64,000 nucleotides of DNA, taken from contig CAZKRD010000001.1 of NCBI GenBank assembly GCA_964555185.1, positions 303,272 to 367,271 on the forward strand, written 5' to 3'. The position numbers were made by a program, and so were the translations under genes. This document shows positions 16,536-57,256 of this stretch, one piece after another. The stretch's first letter is position 1. Every line of letters begins with the position of its first letter. The notes under the pieces are model-generated. The model made no database searches. It was given only the letters and a program-made list of their open reading frames with translations, and was not told the DNA's origin. This DNA is from an uncultured Candidatus Saccharibacteria bacterium. Lineage in GTDB: Bacteria; Patescibacteriota; JAQUNI01.

Positions 16536-17615
16536 ATGAATATTCTATTAACCGGCGGCGGCACGGGCGGACATACGATTCCGCTTGTTGTTGTTGCCGC
16601 TGAATTAAAAAAAAGAAGAAAGGACTTGGTTCTTTTTTGGATTGGTGGAGAAGGGATTGAAGAGCAGGCAGCGCGGGAAAATAATATCGCTTTTGGAAAG
16701 ATAGTTGTCGGGAAATTTCGCCGCTACTTTTCTTTTTCTAATCTGCTTGATTTTTTTAAAATTCCGATTGGATTTTTCCAAAGTTTCTTTTTGATTTTGG
16801 GCTTTAAGCCCGATCTTGTGTTTAGTAAAGGAGGTTATGTCAGCTTGCCTGTGGTTTTCGCGGCCTTCCTCTTGCGCAAAAAGATTATCATCCACGAATC
16901 TGATTTGAAACCGGGTCTAGCGAATAGAATCGGAGCGAGGTTAGCTTCCAAGGTTTTGTTAGGATTTAAAAAAGGGGCAGACGAAAAGCAGCATATCTTT
17001 GTTGGCAATCCAATAAGAGAAGAGATTTTACAGAGAGATAAAGCAGAAGGTTGTCGTTTTTTTAATCTTGATCCAGAGAGGAAAACAATTTTGATTCTGG
17101 GCGGCAGTCAGGGCGCGCGTTTTCTCAATCAGTTAATTACAAAAGCAAAAACGAACTTGGGAGAATATCAGCTTATTCACCTTGTTGGACCAAAATATCC
17201 TCTGCCCAAAACAGGAGAAAATTACAAGCCCTATAACTGGCTTGCGGCAAAAAGAATCGGCCAGGCTTATGCTGCGGCTGACTTTGTGATTTCCCGGGCC
17301 GGGGCTAATACTTTGGCTGAAATTGCGGCCTGCGGCAAGCCATCAATCCTAATCCCAATGCCGCGATCAGCAGCCGGCCACCAGCTTGCCAATGCCAAGG
17401 TGTTTGAGAGAGAAGGAGCGAGTATTGTTTTAGAACAAGAAAGTCTATCGCGAGATAAGTTGATTAAGATTGTGAAAAGTTTATTAGCTAATCAAGAGAG
17501 GTTAAAAGAGATGGGTTTGGCTGCTCAAAACCTGGCTTGTCCTGATGCGTCATCTCGGATTGTTTCCTCTATTTTGAATAATGTTACAAATTTGAACGAT
17601 CGTGAAGATTTGTAA
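16536..17615 (+). CDS. murG: UDP-GlcNAc--lipid I N-acetylglucosaminyltransferase MurG
   Basis: The NILLTGGGTGGHTIPLVVVAAEL N-terminus is the G-loop of MurG. 359 aa. Confidence 0.9.
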   Translation: MNILLTGGGTGGHTIPLVVVAAELKKRRKDLVLFWIGGEGIEEQAARENNIAFGKIVVGKFRRYFSFSNLLDFFKIPIGFFQSFFLILGFKPDLVFSKGGYVSLPVVFAAFLLRKKIIIHESDLKPGLANRIGARLASKVLLGFKKGADEKQHIFVGNPIREEILQRDKAEGCRFFNLDPERKTILILGGSQGARFLNQLITKAKTNLGEYQLIHLVGPKYPLPKTGENYKPYNWLAAKRIGQAYAAADFVISRAGANTLAEIAACGKPSILIPMPRSAAGHQLANAKVFEREGASIVLEQESLSRDKLIKIVKSLLANQERLKEMGLAAQNLACPDASSRIVSSILNNVTNLNDREDL

Positions 17616-17628
17616 CGCCCAAATTACA

Positions 17629-18993
17629 ATGTCAGGCAATCAACAACAAAAGGATATTCACTTGATCGGGATTGGCGGGATTGGGATCTCCGGTTTAGCG
17701 CGGATTTATTTAGAGAAAGGATATAGGGTTTCTGGTTCAGATTTAGTAGGATCAAAGATAACACGCGGCTTAGAGAAATTAGGCGCCAAGATTTTTATTG
17801 GCAAGCACAAGAAGGAGAATTTGTCATCTTCTGCTAATCTAGTTGTTTATAATCTGGCGATTCCAGAAGATAACCCAGAGCTTGCGGGCGCGCGGAAGAA
17901 AAAAATCAAGTGTCTTACTTATCCGGAAGCTTTAGGTGAATTGAGCAAAGATTATTTTACGATCTGCGTTTCTGGAACCCATGGCAAAACCACGACCACC
18001 TCGATGCTTGCTTCAATTCTATTGAAAGCCGGCTTGGATCCAACCGTGATTGTGGGAAGCAAGCTCAAAGAATTGGATGGCAGTAATGCTCGTTTAGGCA
18101 AAAGCAAGTATCTAGTGATTGAAGCGGATGAATACAAGCGGGCTTTTTTGAATTATCATCCGAAAGTGATTGTGGTTACGAATATTGAAGCAGATCATTT
18201 GGATTATTATAAAGATATTGATGATTTGAATTCGGCTTTTGAGAGCTTTGTTGAGAACTTGTTTCCGAAGGGCATATTAGTGGCTAATGACGAGGTTTTT
18301 TCTTCTTTGTCATTACAAAGAGCAAGCGAGGCAGAGCCGAGCGCAGCGACGAAGCAATCTCCTTTTGGAGAATTTATCTTTTACAATCAGGGGCCGCGGG
18401 AGAAAATTAAAAAGGTTTTGCAAGTCCCTGGTGACCATAATATTCAAAATGCTTTGGCTGCTTTTGCTGTGGCGAAGAATTTAGGTATTCCCGATCAGAC
18501 TATTTTTAAAGCTTTGTCAAAATTCCAAGGCGCTTGGCGCCGTTTTGAAGTAAAGTATAATAGAGAAGTGACGATTATTGACGATTATGGCCACCATCCC
18601 ACAGAGATAAAAGCTACGCTGGCCGGAGCGCAGGAGAAATATCCGGATCGTAAGCTCTGGTGCGTTTTCCAGCCCCACCAGATTGAGCGGACCAGGAAAC
18701 TATTCCAAGATTTTATAAGTTCTTTTGATTCTGCTGATAAAATAATTATTGCCAAAATTTTTGGCGTTGCCGGCCGTGAAAAAGGAGATATGCAGGAGGA
18801 AGTATTGTCTAAAAAATTAGCCATTATGCTAAAGGATCGAGGATTAGACGCGATTTATTTAGATAATTTCGAAAAAATAGTCAATTATCTCAGTAAGAAT
18901 ATTAAAAAAGGAGATGTAATCATTGTGATGGGCGCGGGCACGATCAACCAGCTAACCCCTAAATTAATTAAAAAAATCAAGCCTGAGATTTAG
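17629..18993 (+). CDS. murC: UDP-N-acetylmuramate--L-alanine ligase MurC
   Basis: IHLIGIGGIGISGLARIYLEKGYRVSGSD and GTHGKTTTTSM P-loop. The track start at 17602 is GTG, so the ATG at 17629 is used. Confidence 0.9.
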   Translation: MSGNQQQKDIHLIGIGGIGISGLARIYLEKGYRVSGSDLVGSKITRGLEKLGAKIFIGKHKKENLSSSANLVVYNLAIPEDNPELAGARKKKIKCLTYPEALGELSKDYFTICVSGTHGKTTTTSMLASILLKAGLDPTVIVGSKLKELDGSNARLGKSKYLVIEADEYKRAFLNYHPKVIVVTNIEADHLDYYKDIDDLNSAFESFVENLFPKGILVANDEVFSSLSLQRASEAEPSAATKQSPFGEFIFYNQGPREKIKKVLQVPGDHNIQNALAAFAVAKNLGIPDQTIFKALSKFQGAWRRFEVKYNREVTIIDDYGHHPTEIKATLAGAQEKYPDRKLWCVFQPHQIERTRKLFQDFISSFDSADKIIIAKIFGVAGREKGDMQEEVLSKKLAIMLKDRGLDAIYLDNFEKIVNYLSKNIKKGDVIIVMGAGTINQLTPKLIKKIKPEI

Positions 18994-25695: not shown

Positions 25696-25729
25696 GTTAC
25701 AAATTTAGCCGATCGGTCAGTTTTGTAAC
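25696..25729 (+). promoter_or_regulatory. Operator-like palindrome GTTACAAA-N-GATCGG-N-TTTGTAAC, copy 1 (upstream of the sigma-r4 HTH gene)
   Basis: gttacaaatttagccgatcggtcagttttgtaac. A promoter candidate TTGACT-(15-17)-TAGTAAT follows at 25737-25765. Confidence 0.45.
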
Positions 25730-25852
25730 ATATTTCTTGACTTATTCCCAAAATTGTAGTAATCTAATTCTTTTAATCGTGATTTTTGGCTTATTTTCCA
25801 GTTTTCTTGACAGATCTATCTATCTATGATATTATTTTAAATAGACAAATTT

Positions 25853-26926
25853 ATGGCTAAAAACCGGGGAATAAAAAAGAAGCAAGGAGCAATCAAAGGA
25901 GTGGATTTACAGTCCTTAATTTTTGAGATGTTTGCTCCTTTTCCAGAGAAAAATCAAGAGATTATCAAAAGACGGTTTGGTTTGCTTGCCGAATCCGGCG
26001 AAACCCTGGAAGCGATTGGTAAGGATTATGGAGTTACCCGGGAGCGGGTGCGCCAGATCGAAGCTTTAACCTTAAAGACCTTAAAACAGGAGAAGGGGAC
26101 TCAAGAGTTAAAGATTGTTGAGGAAATGATTATTTCTGTTTTGGTTGATATGGGGGGCGTTATTGGAGAAAGAGAATTGCTAGCAAAGCTTTTGGGAGAC
26201 GATTTTAGAAATCCTGTCTATTGCAATCTAGTTTTGTTTGTTTTGAAAATTTCAGATAAATTTTTCTTATTGCCTGAAAATGATCACTATCGCCAGGCTT
26301 GGACCACGGAGCGCGGTTTTTTCAAGAAGACAGAAGGAGTGATCGAGCTCGCTAAAGAAGTTTTAGAAAAGGTTGGCGAGCCGCTCACGATTGACGAGTT
26401 GCAGAAGGCAATTGATGTTTCCAAGATCCCGAGCAGTTTGAATGATAAGATGGTTCGCAATTACCTGGCGCTTTCAAAGGAAGTGATCCCCAACCCCTAT
26501 GGCGATTGGGGTTTGTCTGATTGGAATGAGATCAATCCGCGCGGCGTAAAAGACAGGGCCTATATTGTTTTAAAGAAAAGCGGGAAGCCTTTGCATTTTA
26601 CCCAGATTACAGAAGCGATCAATAGAAGCGGGTTAGGAACCAAACCAGCGCACGCGCCGACCGTGCACAATGAATTGATTAAAGATTCTCGTTTTATTTT
26701 AGTTGGTCGCGGTATTTACGCGCTTCGCAATTGGGGATATCAAGAAGGGACCGTGAAGGAGGTCTTGGTTGGTGTTTTAAAGAAACAAGATCAGCCGGTA
26801 AAGAGAGAGGAACTGATCAATCTTGTTTTGAAACAGCGGATCGTGCGGCGCTCTACGGTTTTACTCAATCTTCAAGATGATTCTCTTTTTGTCCAGAGCT
26901 GGAGAAATGAGATTAGTTTGAAATAG
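25853..26926 (+). CDS. DNA-binding protein with N-terminal sigma-70 region-4-like HTH (C-terminal ~250 aa unknown)
   Basis: ETLEAIGKDYGVTRERVRQIEALTLKTLKQ matches the sigma-70 r4 / LuxR-type HTH consensus. The rest of the protein has no recognisable domain. Confidence 0.5.
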   Translation: MAKNRGIKKKQGAIKGVDLQSLIFEMFAPFPEKNQEIIKRRFGLLAESGETLEAIGKDYGVTRERVRQIEALTLKTLKQEKGTQELKIVEEMIISVLVDMGGVIGERELLAKLLGDDFRNPVYCNLVLFVLKISDKFFLLPENDHYRQAWTTERGFFKKTEGVIELAKEVLEKVGEPLTIDELQKAIDVSKIPSSLNDKMVRNYLALSKEVIPNPYGDWGLSDWNEINPRGVKDRAYIVLKKSGKPLHFTQITEAINRSGLGTKPAHAPTVHNELIKDSRFILVGRGIYALRNWGYQEGTVKEVLVGVLKKQDQPVKREELINLVLKQRIVRRSTVLLNLQDDSLFVQSWRNEISLK

Positions 26927-27230
26927 AAATAGAAAGTTTAAATCCTAAATCCTAAATCCTAAATCCTAAACAATTTCCCGCCTTCGCTCACGAGCTTCGG
27001 CGGACAGGCCCGCCTTGCCCCGCTTCGCGAGGTGAGCCGCAAAGCGAGGCAGGCAAAGTTCAAATGTTCAAAACCCGGCCGTACGCCTTGGCGTAGGCAA
27101 GGATTTGTTTAGAGTTTAGGCGTTGGGATTTAGGATTTTTTGAACCTTTAAGAATCCTATTTGTTTTAGATTGGGCGGTTGTGGTATAATGTCTATAAAG
27201 ATATTGTTCAATAAATCAAAATAAAACAAA
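26927..27230 (+). repeat. Heptamer-periodic palindromic element (aatccta x4 ... tttaggatttaggatt) enclosing a GC-rich structured core
   Basis: aatcctaaatcctaaatcctaaatcctaaa ... ccgccttcgctcacgagcttcggcgg ... ggcaggcaaagttcaaatgttcaaaac ... tttagagtttaggcgttgggatttaggatt. Confidence 0.6.
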
Positions 27231-28541
27231 ATGGACTTGTCGATTTTCGCGCCCTTTGTCCAAATTTTTGGTATCCTAAAAATTGTTTTTGGCAATCTAT
27301 GGCACTTTATTGTTCCGCCTTTTTTGTTTCTGATTGCTTTTATCTCTTGGGTTTATTACCGCCAGGGTCAGTACTTAAAGGGCATTGAGTATGCTCTTTT
27401 GGCGGTCAATGTTCCGGCTGAAAATCTGCGCACTCCTTTTGCCGCAGAGCAGATTATGGCTGGCTTGCATGGTATCTTAACACCACGCGATTTGATTGAA
27501 AGGTATTGGCTGGGTGAAATCCAGGAATGGTTTTCTTTTGAGATTATTGGTATTGAGGGTCATGTTCATTTTATTATCAGGACGCCGGCTAAGTTCATAG
27601 ATTTGGTGGAAGCTCATGTTTATGCCCAATACCCGGAAGCAGAAATAATAGAAGTGGAGGATTATACCAAAAATGTGCCAGACGATATTACCAGTCCAGA
27701 ATCCAAGTGGGACATTTGGGGCACGGAGATGGCTCTTGCCAAGGAAGACGCCTATCCGATTAGAACCTATGTGGATTTTGAGTTCGCAACCCAGGCCGCG
27801 CCCGATGAAGCAAAGATAGATTCTTTGGCTGGTGTTATTGAGCTAATGAGCCATTTAGGGAGAGGTGAGCAGATGTGGATTCAGATACCATCCCAGCCTG
27901 CTTTCGACACCTGGAAGGAGGATGGTGAAAAACTGGTTAAAAAATTGATCGGCGTCAAAGAGCCCAAAAAGAAAAGTATTTTAGGGGATGTGGCGCGGGA
28001 ATGGGGCGAGATTGCGGTCAAGACAGTAACTCAAGCCCCTTTTGAACCTCCGACTTTTCAAGAACCGGGGGAGAAAGAGGAAGATCGTGGCTTGCCAAGT
28101 CTAATGCAGTTTCTTTCCCCTGGTCAACAGGAAACGATTAAAGCGATAGAGCGGAATATTAGCAAGGTCGCTTATCGCAATAAAGTAAGGATGATTTATT
28201 TAATCCATAAGGATGTTTACAATAAAGAGTTGATGAAATCACGGGCCGCCGCTTTTATCGGCGCTTTCACCCATTTTGCCACCACTCATCTTAATACTTT
28301 TGTGCCGAAACGGAAGACCAGCGCCCACTATTGGTTTCCTGCTACCAGGCTTAATTTTCGCAAACGTCAGATTTTGCGGGAATACAAAGAGAGGAAACTT
28401 TCTGACGGCCAGAGTTTTTTCTTGAACACGGAAGAGTTGGCCACTATTTTTCATTTCCCAACGGCCACGGTCAAGGCGCCAATGGTCGAGAAAATAGAAG
28501 TGAAGAAAGCAATGCCGCCTGCTGGCCTGCCGGTTACCTGA
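27231..28541 (+). CDS. Membrane-anchored hypothetical protein (2 N-terminal TM helices)
   Basis: 436 aa; the N-terminus IFGILKIVFGNLWHFIVPPFLFLIAFISWVYY is predicted as two TM helices. An extended -10 (TGgTATAAT, 27182-27190) lies upstream. It precedes the VirD4-like ATPase gene. Confidence 0.5.
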   Translation: MDLSIFAPFVQIFGILKIVFGNLWHFIVPPFLFLIAFISWVYYRQGQYLKGIEYALLAVNVPAENLRTPFAAEQIMAGLHGILTPRDLIERYWLGEIQEWFSFEIIGIEGHVHFIIRTPAKFIDLVEAHVYAQYPEAEIIEVEDYTKNVPDDITSPESKWDIWGTEMALAKEDAYPIRTYVDFEFATQAAPDEAKIDSLAGVIELMSHLGRGEQMWIQIPSQPAFDTWKEDGEKLVKKLIGVKEPKKKSILGDVAREWGEIAVKTVTQAPFEPPTFQEPGEKEEDRGLPSLMQFLSPGQQETIKAIERNISKVAYRNKVRMIYLIHKDVYNKELMKSRAAAFIGAFTHFATTHLNTFVPKRKTSAHYWFPATRLNFRKRQILREYKERKLSDGQSFFLNTEELATIFHFPTATVKAPMVEKIEVKKAMPPAGLPVT

Positions 28542-28689
28542 AGAGGGGGAGTAATTTTTGATTTTTAATTCTTAATTTCCCATTGAATTTTTAATAAGTT
28601 AATTTTTAATTTTTAAACATTCCATTGTCTCAAATTTATCTTGTTTGGAAACTCAATCATTAAAAATTAGAAATTGAAAATTATCATTT

Positions 28690-30396
28690 ATGTCAGAATA
28701 CATTGTTCCCTTTGCGATGACTAATTTCCGCAATTCAGAACGGAAGTTTGGGATTAAAGGAGATGATCGCCGCAGACACATTTATATTATCGGTAAGACG
28801 GGCATGGGCAAAACCACCCTGCTTGAAAATATGGCAATTACCGATATCCAGGCAGGCAAGGGTTTGGCGATTGTTGATCCGCATGGGCAGTTCGCGGATA
28901 AGATGCTGGATTTCGTGCCCCCTAATCGTATCAATGACGTGGTTTATTTTAATCCCGCGGATTATGATTACCCAATCGCTTTTAATATCTTGGAGCAGGT
29001 GGAGCCGCAGTATAAGCATTTGATTGCCGATGGTTTAGTTGGTGTTTTCAAAAAAATCTGGGCTGATTCTTGGGGGCCCCGTTTGGAGTATATTTTGCGC
29101 AATGCTATTCTAGCCCTCTTGGATTATCCTTCTTCTACTCTTTTAGGCGTGACCCGGATGCTTGTTGATAAAAATTACCGCAAAAAGGTAGTGCGTAAAA
29201 TTCAGGATCCCGTGGTGCGCTCTTTCTGGATTGATGAATATGCTCATTACAGTGAGCGTTTCAGGAATGAAGCAATCTCGCCAATCCAGAATAAAGTAGG
29301 CCAGTTTTTGTCTTCAGCTTTAATTCGTAATATCATTGGTCAGCCTAAATCAGTGATCAATATCCGCGATATTATGGATTCAGGTAAGATTTTATTAATG
29401 AATATCGCGAAAGGCAAAGTAGGTGAAGAAAACAGCGCTCTCTTAGGCGCGATGATGATTACCAAGATTCAGTTGGCGGCAATGAGCCGCGCTGATATCC
29501 CCGAAGACGAGAGGCGCGATTTTTATCTCTATATTGATGAGTTTCAGAATTTTTCCACAGAGTCGTTTGCCAATATTTTATCAGAAGCGCGTAAGTACAG
29601 ATTGGATTTGATTCTGGCTCATCAATACATCGCCCAGATGGAGGAGCCGGTGCGTGATGCCGTATTCGGTAACGTGGGGACGATTGTTTGTTTCCGCATC
29701 GGTGCGTGGGATGCTGAATTTTTAGAGCCGGAATTCCAGCCGGTGTTTACCCAGCTGGATCTCGTTAATTTGACCAAATACGAGATTTATCTCAAATTGA
29801 TGATTGACGGCGTGGCTTCGGATGCTTTTTCCGCCAAGACCTTGCCGCCGATTGAAGACGAGGCGTCCTACTATCCAGAGAGTCGGGATAAAATCATTAA
29901 GATTTCGCGGGAAAGGTACGCCAATGAGCGCTCCGAAGTGGAAGATAAGATTAACCGTTGGAGCGGAGCGGATCAGGAACCCGCGCGCGACAATGTGCCA
30001 AGACAGCAAGAAGAGCACTGGAATAGGGATAGGGATAGACGGGATTATGGTCGTCGCAATTTTAATAACCAGAGAGAACGGGATAATAGATATCAGCAAA
30101 GCAAGCAGGACCGTCGTCCTTGGGACAATTTTGGCCGGCGCTTTCCGCGTAAACAGGAAGTAGAGCCGATTGCTACCCCTGTGCCTAAAAGTATTTCTTT
30201 GAGCGACGCGATCAAGCAGGGAACCCAAACTTTTCGCAAACCAAAAAGAAGACCGGAGCCAGACAAGAGAGAGACAAGAGAGAGTCGCGATTTCACCTCG
30301 CCAAAGATACAGAGGAATCCTAAGGTTCAGGAAAACAGAGACAAAACCCGTCGTCCTGCCCAAGGCGTGCAAGAGGACCAAGTCATTAGACTTTGA
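28690..30396 (+). CDS. TraD/VirD4/TrwB-like P-loop ATPase (DUF87/AAA-like coupling-protein family) with a disordered R/D/E-rich tail
   Basis: Walker A HIYIIGKTGMGKTT and Walker B FYLYIDEFQNF. The arrangement is similar to type IV coupling proteins and HerA. The last ~170 aa are low complexity (RDRDRRDYGRRNFNNQRERDNRYQQSKQDRRPW...). Confidence 0.6.
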   Translation: MSEYIVPFAMTNFRNSERKFGIKGDDRRRHIYIIGKTGMGKTTLLENMAITDIQAGKGLAIVDPHGQFADKMLDFVPPNRINDVVYFNPADYDYPIAFNILEQVEPQYKHLIADGLVGVFKKIWADSWGPRLEYILRNAILALLDYPSSTLLGVTRMLVDKNYRKKVVRKIQDPVVRSFWIDEYAHYSERFRNEAISPIQNKVGQFLSSALIRNIIGQPKSVINIRDIMDSGKILLMNIAKGKVGEENSALLGAMMITKIQLAAMSRADIPEDERRDFYLYIDEFQNFSTESFANILSEARKYRLDLILAHQYIAQMEEPVRDAVFGNVGTIVCFRIGAWDAEFLEPEFQPVFTQLDLVNLTKYEIYLKLMIDGVASDAFSAKTLPPIEDEASYYPESRDKIIKISRERYANERSEVEDKINRWSGADQEPARDNVPRQQEEHWNRDRDRRDYGRRNFNNQRERDNRYQQSKQDRRPWDNFGRRFPRKQEVEPIATPVPKSISLSDAIKQGTQTFRKPKRRPEPDKRETRESRDFTSPKIQRNPKVQENRDKTRRPAQGVQEDQVIRL

Positions 30397-38433: not shown

Positions 38434-38505
38434 CGGGGATTGGCCTAATGGTAAGGCGCACGATTCGGGTTCGTGAGACTCCGGGTTCAAATCCCGGATC
38501 CCCGA
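38434..38505 (+). tRNA. tRNA-Pro (anticodon CGG); CCA not encoded
   Basis: Hand-folded. Acceptor stem CGGGGAT/ATCCCCG (7 bp). D arm gcct-aatggta-aggc. Anticodon stem cacga/tcgtg with loop ttCGGgt (U33, G37). Variable loop agact. T arm ccggg-ttcaaat-cccgg. Discriminator A. Confidence 0.8.
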
Positions 38506-53738: not shown

Positions 53739-54296
53739 ATGTTTAAGAGATTCATGATTTTAGGGGCGGTGATTGTTTTAGTTTTTGTTGCTGCGGGATG
53801 TTATCCTCCGGAGCCGCCTGTACCACCACAGACTTCAGGCTTGACTGAGGAAGCATTAAAGAATGCGGAATACGAGTCTGGCTGTATTGAAGGAGCGGCG
53901 CCAATGATTAATGGCGAACATTATTATTCTCCGCCTGGAGACCCGATGCCGGGAGAGGAAGATATAGAGTATTTTACAGTGATTGAAGAGGGTTTAATCG
54001 CGTTTGGAGACTTAGATGGCGACGGCGTGGATGACGCGGCAGTTATCTTGGGCTCATGGACTGGCGGCTCTGGTTATTATATCGGTATCTCAGCGGTTTC
54101 TTTACAAGGGGGTGTTCCAGTGAATATTGCTTCTGAATGTTTGGGAGACAGGGTGCTTGTCAATTCAATTGCGATTGAAAATAATGAGATTGTACTTTCG
54201 GTTGTAACCCATGGCCCGGATGATGCCCTGTGCTGTCCGACCATGGAAGGCGAAAAAAGATTCAAGCTGGATGTGGATATGTTAATTGAGCAATAA
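53739..54296 (+). CDS. Putative lipoprotein (hypothetical)
   Basis: 185 aa. The signal plus lipobox LVFVAAGC and a GDLDGDGVDD calcium-binding-like segment are present. Confidence 0.5.
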   Translation: MFKRFMILGAVIVLVFVAAGCYPPEPPVPPQTSGLTEEALKNAEYESGCIEGAAPMINGEHYYSPPGDPMPGEEDIEYFTVIEEGLIAFGDLDGDGVDDAAVILGSWTGGSGYYIGISAVSLQGGVPVNIASECLGDRVLVNSIAIENNEIVLSVVTHGPDDALCCPTMEGEKRFKLDVDMLIEQ

Positions 54297-54416: not shown

Positions 54417-54450
54417 GTTACAAAACTGGCTGATCGGCCAGTTTTGTAAC
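54417..54450 (+). promoter_or_regulatory. Operator-like palindrome, copy 2 (perfect 14-bp arms, 6-bp spacer; upstream of the NUDIX gene promoter)
   Basis: gttacaaaactggctgatcggccagttttgtaac. A promoter TTGATT-17-TAGAAT follows at 54490-54518. Confidence 0.5.
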
Positions 54451-54489: not shown

Positions 54490-54518
54490 TTGATTTTTTA
54501 TCTTAAATAGAATAGAAT
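54490..54518 (+). promoter_or_regulatory. Sigma70-like promoter candidate (TTGATT-17 bp-TAGAAT) for the NUDIX gene
   Basis: -35/-10 hexamers with 17-bp spacing, 24 nt upstream of the ATG at 54542. Confidence 0.4.
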
Positions 54519-54541: not shown

Positions 54542-54952
54542 ATGAAGAGGGTAACCAAAGTTTTAATGTTTGTTTGGCGCAAAAAAGGCGGCAAAAAGGA
54601 GTTTTTGGTCCTAAAAAGACAAGAGCAGAAAGATTGTGTCGCCTTGACTGGCCATTTGGAGGCCGGGGAAAGCCGCGAGCGGGCCGTAAAAAGAGAGGTT
54701 TTAGAAGAGCTGGACGTCTTGGCAAAGGCGATTGTTGATCTTAATTTCCAAATTACGGTTTTCTTAAAGCATCTCAATGTTGATTCCGAAGAACACGGTT
54801 TTCTAGTGGAGATTCCTGCTCAAAAACAGATTACTTTCTTAGAGTATGAAGCGCGAGTAAGCTGGTATTCTTATCAGGATTTGATTAAGAAATTAACTTA
54901 TCCCAACCAAAGAAAAGCAGCAGAGAAGATCAAAGAATTTTTGAAAGTATAA
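54542..54952 (+). CDS. NUDIX hydrolase
   Basis: 136 aa. An intact Nudix box GHLEAGESRERAVKREVLEELDV. A sigma70-like promoter (TTGATT-17-TAGAAT) lies at 54490-54518. Confidence 0.75.
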   Translation: MKRVTKVLMFVWRKKGGKKEFLVLKRQEQKDCVALTGHLEAGESRERAVKREVLEELDVLAKAIVDLNFQITVFLKHLNVDSEEHGFLVEIPAQKQITFLEYEARVSWYSYQDLIKKLTYPNQRKAAEKIKEFLKV

Positions 54953-57162: not shown

Positions 57163-57256
57163 GGTTAAACTTTACAAACCTATAGAGCTCATATTGTTTT
57201 TAACTTTCAGAGAATAATTGAGCTTTTTTTATACTTTTGAAAAATTAAAAAATAAA

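Follow-up and report, generated by a model that had tools for sequence, protein, structure and literature searches.

Among the repeat systems described in bacteria, the REPtrons of Proteobacteria consist of a RAYT (REP-associated tyrosine transposase) gene that is flanked by its own REP (repetitive extragenic palindromic) repeats, where the end of the REP palindrome bears a GTAG/CGTC tag (PMC3733652). A different association of a protein with a dyad is found in E. coli, where PaaX autorepresses paaXY through the operator TGATTC-N27-GAATCA (PMC9493321). Cyanobacteria have HIP1 (highly iterated palindrome 1, GCGATCGC), a recurrent genomic palindrome of unresolved function (PMC4390886, PMC5861425), and TIGR-Tas arrays, in which tandem 36-nt units with 9-nt spacers adjoin a Nop-domain Tas gene, are known from Candidate Phyla Radiation (CPR) bacteria and from phages (PMC12045711). 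The element considered here is a 34-bp palindrome in a stretch of 64 kb, referred to as the window, from the genome of an uncultured Candidatus Saccharibacteria bacterium. It belongs to a dispersed family of palindromes in Patescibacteria, and palindromes of this architecture bracket genes for PaaX-like proteins, with arms that are specific to the gene, wherever such genes were examined. The genomes of the CPR/Patescibacteria are tiny and encode very few proteins that can be recognised as regulators, and to our knowledge almost nothing is known of their cis-elements.

A first-pass annotation of this DNA had noted the palindrome at two places, upstream of a NUDIX hydrolase gene (copy 1) and of a gene encoding a protein with sigma70-region-4 and HARE-HTH domains (copy 2, hereafter the sigma-like protein), and had read it as the shared operator of two unlinked promoters. 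The count of two does not hold, as a pattern search of the window for GTTACAAA-N12-22-TTTGTAAC also finds a third copy at the junction of murG and murC (Table 1). The three matches stand against 0.01 expected, and a search with the 22-base core, allowing up to 3 mismatches, returns the same three matches against 0.00 expected, which bears out the view that the recurrence goes beyond chance. The consensus common to all three copies is GTTACAAA-N6-CGATCG-N6-TTTGTAAC. Copy 1 has, as originally described, perfect 14-bp arms around a 6-bp spacer. The first base of its centre is T instead of C. Copy 2 keeps the centre and the outer half-sites exactly, the complementarity of its inner arms being only partial. 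The outer 8+8 bases and the 6 of the centre are intact in all three copies bar one base, and the inner bases have drifted. Alignment of the 80 bp on either side of the three copies reveals no similarity of the flanks beyond the 34 bp, and the copies therefore do not belong to some longer unit that was copied between loci, a possibility that the first-pass annotation had raised against its own interpretation. Copy 1 lies 120 bp past the stop of the open reading frame (ORF) at 53739-54296 and 91 bp ahead of the NUDIX ATG, and copy 3 overlaps the murG stop codon, which is 14 nt from the start of murC, and ends 12 nt short of the murC ATG (17629). A further degenerate site in the window is doubtful: about 0.025 half-site pairs of its kind are expected at the exact spacing by our own estimate, and it was left out of the family because its centre differs and because it forms no hairpin (0 kcal/mol).

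Beyond the window, exact-pattern scanning of genomes, with each species represented once, yielded 19 loci and a scan of metagenomes a further 44, almost all of them from Patescibacteria, with 34 distinct 34-mers; exact matching under-samples diverged copies, and the copy numbers per genome are extrapolated from fragments. Many Patescibacteria genomes and metagenomes harbour the family, which is not limited to the two places first noted. Copies are near-identical within a genome and different between genomes. For instance, the Paceibacterota genome Go_SlDig_bin_86 has 9 copies, of which 7 are identical perfect palindromes (GTTACAAAAATTAGCGATCGCTAATTTTTGTAAC) and 2 are variants changed symmetrically at positions 9 and 26, and the metagenome-assembled genome (MAG) CSMAG_2049 has 4 identical copies (GTTACAAATCGCTGCGATCGCAGCGATTTGTAAC). 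A Gribaldobacteria MAG contains 4 copies of an imperfect dyad in both orientations, and a Nealsonbacteria MAG and a Saccharibacteria MAG each contain 1 copy with one asymmetric position. Single matches in Proteobacteria (L005, inside a gene) and in Clostridium (L017), both with the centre TGATCA, are treated as probable chance matches. The inner 6+6 positions vary widely and yet remain complementary, such that 144 of 204 mirrored pairs are Watson-Crick pairs as against 68 +/- 7 with the partners shuffled. The nine bin_86 copies, aligned with 80 bp on each side, have no similarity past the palindrome and a few flanking bases, and the shared sequence ends at about 34-46 bp.

Gribaldobacteria-type copies have a dyad that is lengthened by a GC clamp (ccctgc/gcaggg) and framed by A- and T-runs. 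On metagenome contigs of this type (L004 60-154, L023 7277-7405, L024, L029 and L052) they form tandem arrays with a period of about 55 bp and a near-constant 21-bp linker, and many contigs end there. The linkers are not variable, and these arrays are therefore not CRISPR (clustered regularly interspaced short palindromic repeat) arrays. A literature search with the sequence string of the palindrome returned incidental matches only.

What, then, accompanies these palindromes? At two loci a pair of copies, separated by about 750-800 bp, encloses one small gene, and in both cases this gene encodes a PF20803 PaaX_M protein. Over about 400 kb of motif-centred loci, searches by tblastn and with a hidden Markov model (HMM, 87 orthologues) find PaaX-like genes at four places only, each directly beside the motif. 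The reverse test, for which the contexts of homologues were fetched from Gribaldobacteria, Parcubacteria, Staskawiczbacteria-type, Liptonbacteria-type and Wolfebacteria genomes and from one 1.02-Mb genome, gives the same association: each of the 14 PaaX-like genes examined lies between two dyads with a CG[AG][TC]CG centre, the palindromes being 34-38 bp long. The upstream dyad either overlaps the called start or leaves a gap of at most 109 bp to it, and the downstream dyad either overlaps the gene end or follows the stop after at most 51 bp. For 13 genes the dyads are centred on CGATCG; the remaining one, on the Wolfebacteria contig JACPIO010000016.1 (L082, 7889-7922 and 8649-8682), has a variant bracket with CGGTCG/CGGCCG as the centre and TAAAAT(A/T)AT as the arms.

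The arms of the bracketing palindromes change with the gene (for example GTCACAAC, ATGACAAA, CGAACAAGTA, CTTCAA, TCTCACTTCC and TTATTAAAT), and four of the bracketed genes have exactly the GTTACAAA arms of the window. Where two paralogues are present, as in L070 and in L075, each has its own arm type, and several protein-palindrome pairs therefore coexist in one genome; the second paralogues, at 18626-19192 in L070 and 1596-2216 in L075, lie 5-9 kb from the first. Nearly every CGATCG hexamer of the bracketing loci is the centre of a dyad (5/5, 4/4, 2/3 and 4/4), and in the AT-rich loci L064, L066, L070 and L081 the hexamer is scarce outside the elements. Solo copies, of the same or of other arm types, are found near bracketed genes. 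In L047 (6670-6759) and L056 (2521-2611) the PaaX-like gene is preceded by a tandem pair of copies at a distance of about 42 bp from each other, of which the promoter-proximal one has rearranged half-sites (GTAACAAAA...AAATGTAAC). No paa genes occur near the PaaX-like genes in the examined loci. A literature search, of incomplete coverage, found no paper that joins PaaX with Patescibacteria or with Cas2-like proteins, and no description of a pairing between a PaaX-like protein and a palindrome.

The PaaX-like protein has about 200 aa and combines an N-terminal winged helix with a Cas2-like domain, without an effector domain. Pfam identifies PF20803 PaaX_M (E 3.6e-19) and, weakly, Cas2, with the Y1 transposase domain absent, and of the 120 listed homologues only 2 contain PF08223. 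With 39.8 bits the protein falls far short of the cutoff of the TIGR02277 PaaX equivalog model (264.55), for Cas2 (TIGR01573) it scores about at the cutoff, and the PADLOC defence-system models return only weak Cas2 matches. An AlphaFold model with a pLDDT (predicted local distance difference test) of 84 predicts a helical/winged-helix N-terminal part and a ferredoxin-like C-terminal domain, and the best Foldseek matches of the model in the PDB are E. coli PaaX (8a39, E 1e-5), Rv0674 and then many Cas2 chains. The invariant residues are T99, G102, D121, F129, D130, R139, Q155, S157 and V158. T99 and G102 fall in the wing motif, and the Cas2-type motif WDGKWR...FDIPE...QKSV contains an invariant Asp. 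The putative recognition helix reads R..NF in both of the full-length close GTTACAAA-arm orthologues that align there, and E..NL, Q..NI or R..NI in proteins with other arms, which weakly suggests a correspondence between helix and arm; the GTTACAAA-arm protein of L001, a third one, has diverged so far that it does not align convincingly in the recognition helix.

The best explanation of these observations is that the palindromes are probably the cognate sites of a dimeric PaaX-like protein and act as a REP-like dispersed repeat family, a reading that is drawn from sequence and to which we give the greater weight with some reserve. Conserved half-sites and a palindromic centre with variable bases in between look like the site of a symmetric dimeric DNA-binding protein, and to this extent the original idea of a site for a dimeric factor is retained, shorn of its role as the operator of two specific promoters. 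The protein would bind duplex DNA as a homodimer, with its two winged helices placed on the outer half-sites, some 26-28 bp apart, much like the half-sites of the E. coli PaaX operator, and with the core of the dimer lying over the CGATCG centre. The upstream copy would allow the PaaX-like gene to be autoregulated. The solo copies, including the three in the window, would be REP-like descendants of a bracketing site and may at most serve as generic protein-bound landmarks, such as a roadblock, an insulator or a terminator-like element, rather than as gene-specific switches.

Several points weigh against this explanation. (i) The link between protein and palindrome is throughout one of genomic association. 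(ii) Neither tblastn nor the HMM finds a PaaX-like gene in the window, and none of the homologues listed in two database searches lies on the 706,972-bp metagenomic scaffold of the window; the cognate protein of this genome may have been lost. (iii) The L001 protein and P0001 both have GTTACAAA arms though they share about 34% identity, and that in the C-terminal domain alone, and arm specificity is therefore not simply tracking protein phylogeny. (iv) Ordinary transcription-factor sites are not expected to be identical over whole 34-bp copies in one genome, to vary symmetrically or to extend as palindromes into their flanks, and these features could instead reflect a hairpin or cruciform function or a copying mechanism. 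(v) Copy 1 also satisfies a simple pattern for terminators, its stem having 16 pairs and its tail being GTCTTGTTTT.

A more far-reaching possibility, to be held tentatively and at much lower odds than simple binding, is that Patescibacteria contain an undescribed REPtron-like system in which a winged-helix/Cas2-like protein recognises, maintains and perhaps propagates its own palindromes, the pairs co-evolving within a genome. Because the core of the protein is Cas2-like and its DNA partner is a palindromic repeat, such a system could, in addition, be related to the ancestry of CRISPR adaptation modules.

Whether the palindromes belong to particular promoters can be judged from their genomic context. 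Once duplicate loci are removed, placement is almost always intergenic, with 24 tandem (co-directional), 8 convergent and 4 divergent arrangements. Pfam profiles of 29 downstream and 33 upstream neighbours give no functional theme except PaaX_M, which appears twice, and the motif neighbours are otherwise unrelated housekeeping genes. In tblastn searches of ten window proteins against the motif loci no neighbours are shared, and the genes flanking the window copies do not recur beside the motif at other loci. The closest relative in the collection (L072), with a sigma-like protein of 95% identity and the gene order kept, has degraded copies. Its secF/sigma-like copy reads GTTACAAATTTGGCCGATTGGTCAATTTTGTCAT, with the centre CGATTG and the right half-site lost via a 4-nt deletion, and its murG/murC copy is mutated in both outer half-sites (GTTACAAG...TTTATAAC); the 121 bases downstream of the secF/sigma-like element are identical to those of the window at 117 positions, with 4 differences. 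At about 60% identity (L073 and L074, which have the same order of secD, secF, the sigma-like gene and the DUF8128 gene) the element is absent from the orthologous intergenic region. The intact contact blocks would fit continued binding in the window's genome, the decay in the 95% relative being in those same blocks.

These data bear directly on the interpretation with which the annotation began, in which a dimeric transcription factor, maybe the sigma-like protein acting on its own gene, would use the palindrome as an operator to co-regulate that gene and the NUDIX gene. Such an operator would agree with the conserved outer half-sites and centre, with the variable inner bases and with the location of two of the three window copies upstream of promoter-like sites. 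As to the distance of 40-60 bp given for these promoters, TTGATT-17-TAGAAT (54490-54518) of the NUDIX gene is found 39 bp past copy 1, and the TTGACT at 25737 starts a mere 7 bp after copy 2; for the 25853 gene the promoter that scores highest is TTGACA-17-TATTAT, which has a TG (25807-25835, 11/12) and lies 77 bp after copy 2. Against the operator stand the position of copy 3 on the murG stop codon, the family members between convergent genes and beside unrelated genes, the absence of the element at 60% identity and its degradation at 95% though the adjacent promoter region is 117/121 identical. Nor does the proposed binder fare better, as the sigma-like protein, with 6076 homologues at E<=1e-20 and the label RNA polymerase delta subunit in some sources, is a ubiquitous housekeeping protein of Patescibacteria and no dedicated regulator, and its gene is without the site in the 60% relatives. 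Placement in all orientations, unrelated neighbours and the lack of orthologous conservation thus speak against an operator of particular promoters; the missing orthologous conservation largely refutes co-regulation, which we regard as very improbable, and the copies behave as a repeat family rather than as conserved operators. The palindrome does not show that the NUDIX and sigma-like genes are co-regulated.

Copy 3 has a feature of its own. It provides the stop of murG together with the 10 codons before it (V T N L N D R E D L), and since the palindrome itself encodes this tail the repeat is co-opted as the coding C-terminus of murG. In the 95% relative the murG tail is V T S L N D R A D L.

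Folding provides a second way to account for the palindromes, namely as RNA or DNA hairpins (for example terminators that work in both directions, stabilisers of mRNA 3' ends or cruciforms) that need no dedicated protein. The strong mirrored covariation, the palindromic flank extensions and the A-run/T-run framing of the Gribaldobacteria copies would all follow from such a function, as would the terminator pattern of copy 1, the single-stranded DNA hairpin of which has an energy of -16 kcal/mol (z -8.6). Convergent contexts outnumber divergent ones (8 vs 4), and on the sense strand mismatches compatible with G-U pairing slightly exceed A-C ones (12 vs 6), a strand bias that is not significant. 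The other two window copies fold weakly, however (-4.3 kcal/mol for copy 2 and -5.9 kcal/mol for copy 3), and yet have exact outer and central blocks, and a purely structural element would not retain 22 identical bases over distant lineages. The terminator pattern is fitted by copy 1 and not by copy 2, copy 3 is without a T-run, and the Gribaldobacteria copies have a GC clamp and a T-run. Neither would a hairpin explain gene-specific arms around the gene of a DNA-binding protein, and an Rfam gathering scan of the whole window matches only a tRNA (38434-38505), with no family at the palindromes. Hairpin function without a dedicated protein is thus unlikely.

The bracketed gene itself raises the question of mobility. 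On a strict REP/RAYT-like model the palindromes would be non-autonomous mobile elements that the PaaX/Cas2-like protein copies or moves, nicking at or near CGATCG. The precedent is the architecture of the REPtron (PMC3733652), and the model accommodates the presence of the gene's own repeat on both sides at 14/14 loci, the specificity of the gene-repeat pairing, which extends to paralogues, the near-identical copies within genomes, the tandem arrays and assembly breaks, and the decay of copies in the close relative. The protein, too, has the Cas2-type FDIPE...QKSV motif with its invariant Asp, and a TIGR01573 score about at the cutoff. Set against this, no insertion polymorphism or target-site signature was seen, PaaX-type Cas2-like domains are known as the dimerisation modules of repressors and not as transposases, copy numbers look like tens and not hundreds, and a full palindrome rather than a single arm stands at each gene end. 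Neither the palindrome motif nor the PaaX-like gene was found in the viral contigs of IMG/VR, which lends no argument for mobility. We consider the strict mobile-element model a rather doubtful one, though less so than a protein-free hairpin.

Finally, the 14-6-14 geometry and the palindromic CGATCG centre recall the core site of a site-specific recombinase (lox/dif-like), and the many copies with GCGATCGC at the centre recall a methylation or restriction palindrome of the HIP1 type, HIP1 being linked to CGATCG and GATC methyltransferases (PMC4390886). A genome with tens of recombination sites whose spacer is symmetric would become scrambled, and among 62 neighbours there is one Phage_integrase match and no such gene that is consistently adjacent. 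As for HIP1, the hexamer CGATCG occurs 13 times in the window, near the figure of about 10 that we estimate from composition, and is neither hyper-abundant nor mainly intragenic. This pair of explanations is the least probable of those considered.

Table 1. Palindromes and neighbouring genes in the window (positions refer to the window)
Feature	Position	Strand	Sequence or match	Remarks
Copy 1	54417-54450	.	GTTACAAAACTGGC-TGATCG-GCCAGTTTTGTAAC	full sequence GTTACAAAACTGGCTGATCGGCCAGTTTTGTAAC
Copy 2	25696-25729	.	GTTACAAATTTAGC-CGATCG-GTCAGTTTTGTAAC	full sequence GTTACAAATTTAGCCGATCGGTCAGTTTTGTAAC
Copy 3	17583-17616	.	GTTACAAATTTGAA-CGATCG-TGAAGATTTGTAAC	full sequence GTTACAAATTTGAACGATCGTGAAGATTTGTAAC
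Doubtful degenerate site	57171-57204	.	TTTACAAACCTATAGAGCTCATATTGTTTTTAAC	centre GAGCTC; 18-bp spacing correct; 1 mismatch per half-site
NUDIX hydrolase gene	54542-54952	+	Pfam PF00293, E 2.8e-10	downstream of copy 1
Sigma70-region-4 and HARE-HTH protein gene	25853-26926	+	Pfam matches	downstream of copy 2
murG (16536-17615) and murC (17629-18993)	16536-18993	+	Pfam Glyco_transf_28 and Mur_ligase	junction holds copy 3

The order of secD-secF, the sigma-like gene, the DUF8128 gene and a TrwB/DUF87-type ATPase gene (25853-30396 in the window) is kept in L072-L074 and in L082, and in L082 the DUF8128 protein and the ATPase are fused into one protein of 794 aa. Throughout the window almost every long ORF is on the + strand, the GC skew is positive and the cumulative skew rises monotonically, and the window therefore lies within one replichore of its scaffold (ENA ERZ23486238 scaffold_1).

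The significance of the family lies in a concrete pairing between a small PaaX/Cas2-like protein family and a 34-bp tripartite palindrome, in which the centre is invariant across classes and the arms change with the protein, a logic seen again and again, at no fewer than 14 independent loci. Should the protein do no more than bind, the pairing would represent a widespread DNA-binding system of the CPR with a readable code between recognition helix and half-site, and annotators would be warned not to take such dyads for gene-specific operators or terminators. If it also propagates the repeats, it would represent a second repeat-gene partnership of the REP/RAYT type, mechanistically unrelated to the first.

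How, then, does the pairing compare with the systems already described? With REP/RAYT it shares short (20-40 bp) extragenic palindromes in multiple dispersed copies (3 in the window, 9 in bin_86 and 4 in CSMAG_2049), a dedicated gene with its own repeat type at either end (in 14/14 PaaX-like genes), several gene-repeat pairs per genome, copies that are uniform within and different between genomes, tandem or clustered arrangements, and decay in some lineages. Unlike in REP/RAYT, the flanked gene encodes a winged-helix and Cas2-like protein and no HUH tyrosine transposase of the IS200/IS605 type, the palindrome has no GTAG/CGTC tag and instead has GTTAC...GTAAC ends or lineage-specific arms together with the conserved CGATCG centre, the copy number is seemingly in the tens and not the hundreds, and any mobility of the gene or the palindrome here is putative. 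With E. coli PaaX it shares a winged helix and a central PaaX_M (Cas2-like) domain, 8a39 being the best structural match, and a long dyad of widely spaced half-sites upstream of its own gene, to which binding by the CPR protein is putative. The CPR protein differs from E. coli PaaX in having about 200 aa rather than 316 aa, with no C-terminal effector (phenylacetyl-CoA) domain, and its dyad, to which an invariant centre is added, is present in dozens of dispersed copies, with one of them downstream of the gene.

The resemblance to HIP1 is in the recurring CGATCG or GCGATCGC palindrome, but whereas HIP1 is a hyper-abundant and largely intragenic 8-mer, the family described here is a 34-bp intergenic unit with tens of copies, arms that are specific to the lineage and a bracketed gene dedicated to it. 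TIGR-Tas arrays likewise have conserved edge and centre blocks that are split by short variable segments, in CPR genomes; an array of this kind is ruled out by the unit structure, in that the 9-nt spacers of TIGR-Tas are non-complementary and accompanied by UG/CCA boxes, whereas the palindromes are mostly solo copies with mutually complementary variable 6-mers and no adjacent Tas gene. The pairing differs, too, from Cas2 and its CRISPR array, in that Cas1 does not appear in the gene lists of the PaaX-like loci and the 21-bp linkers of the Gribaldobacteria arrays are near-constant.
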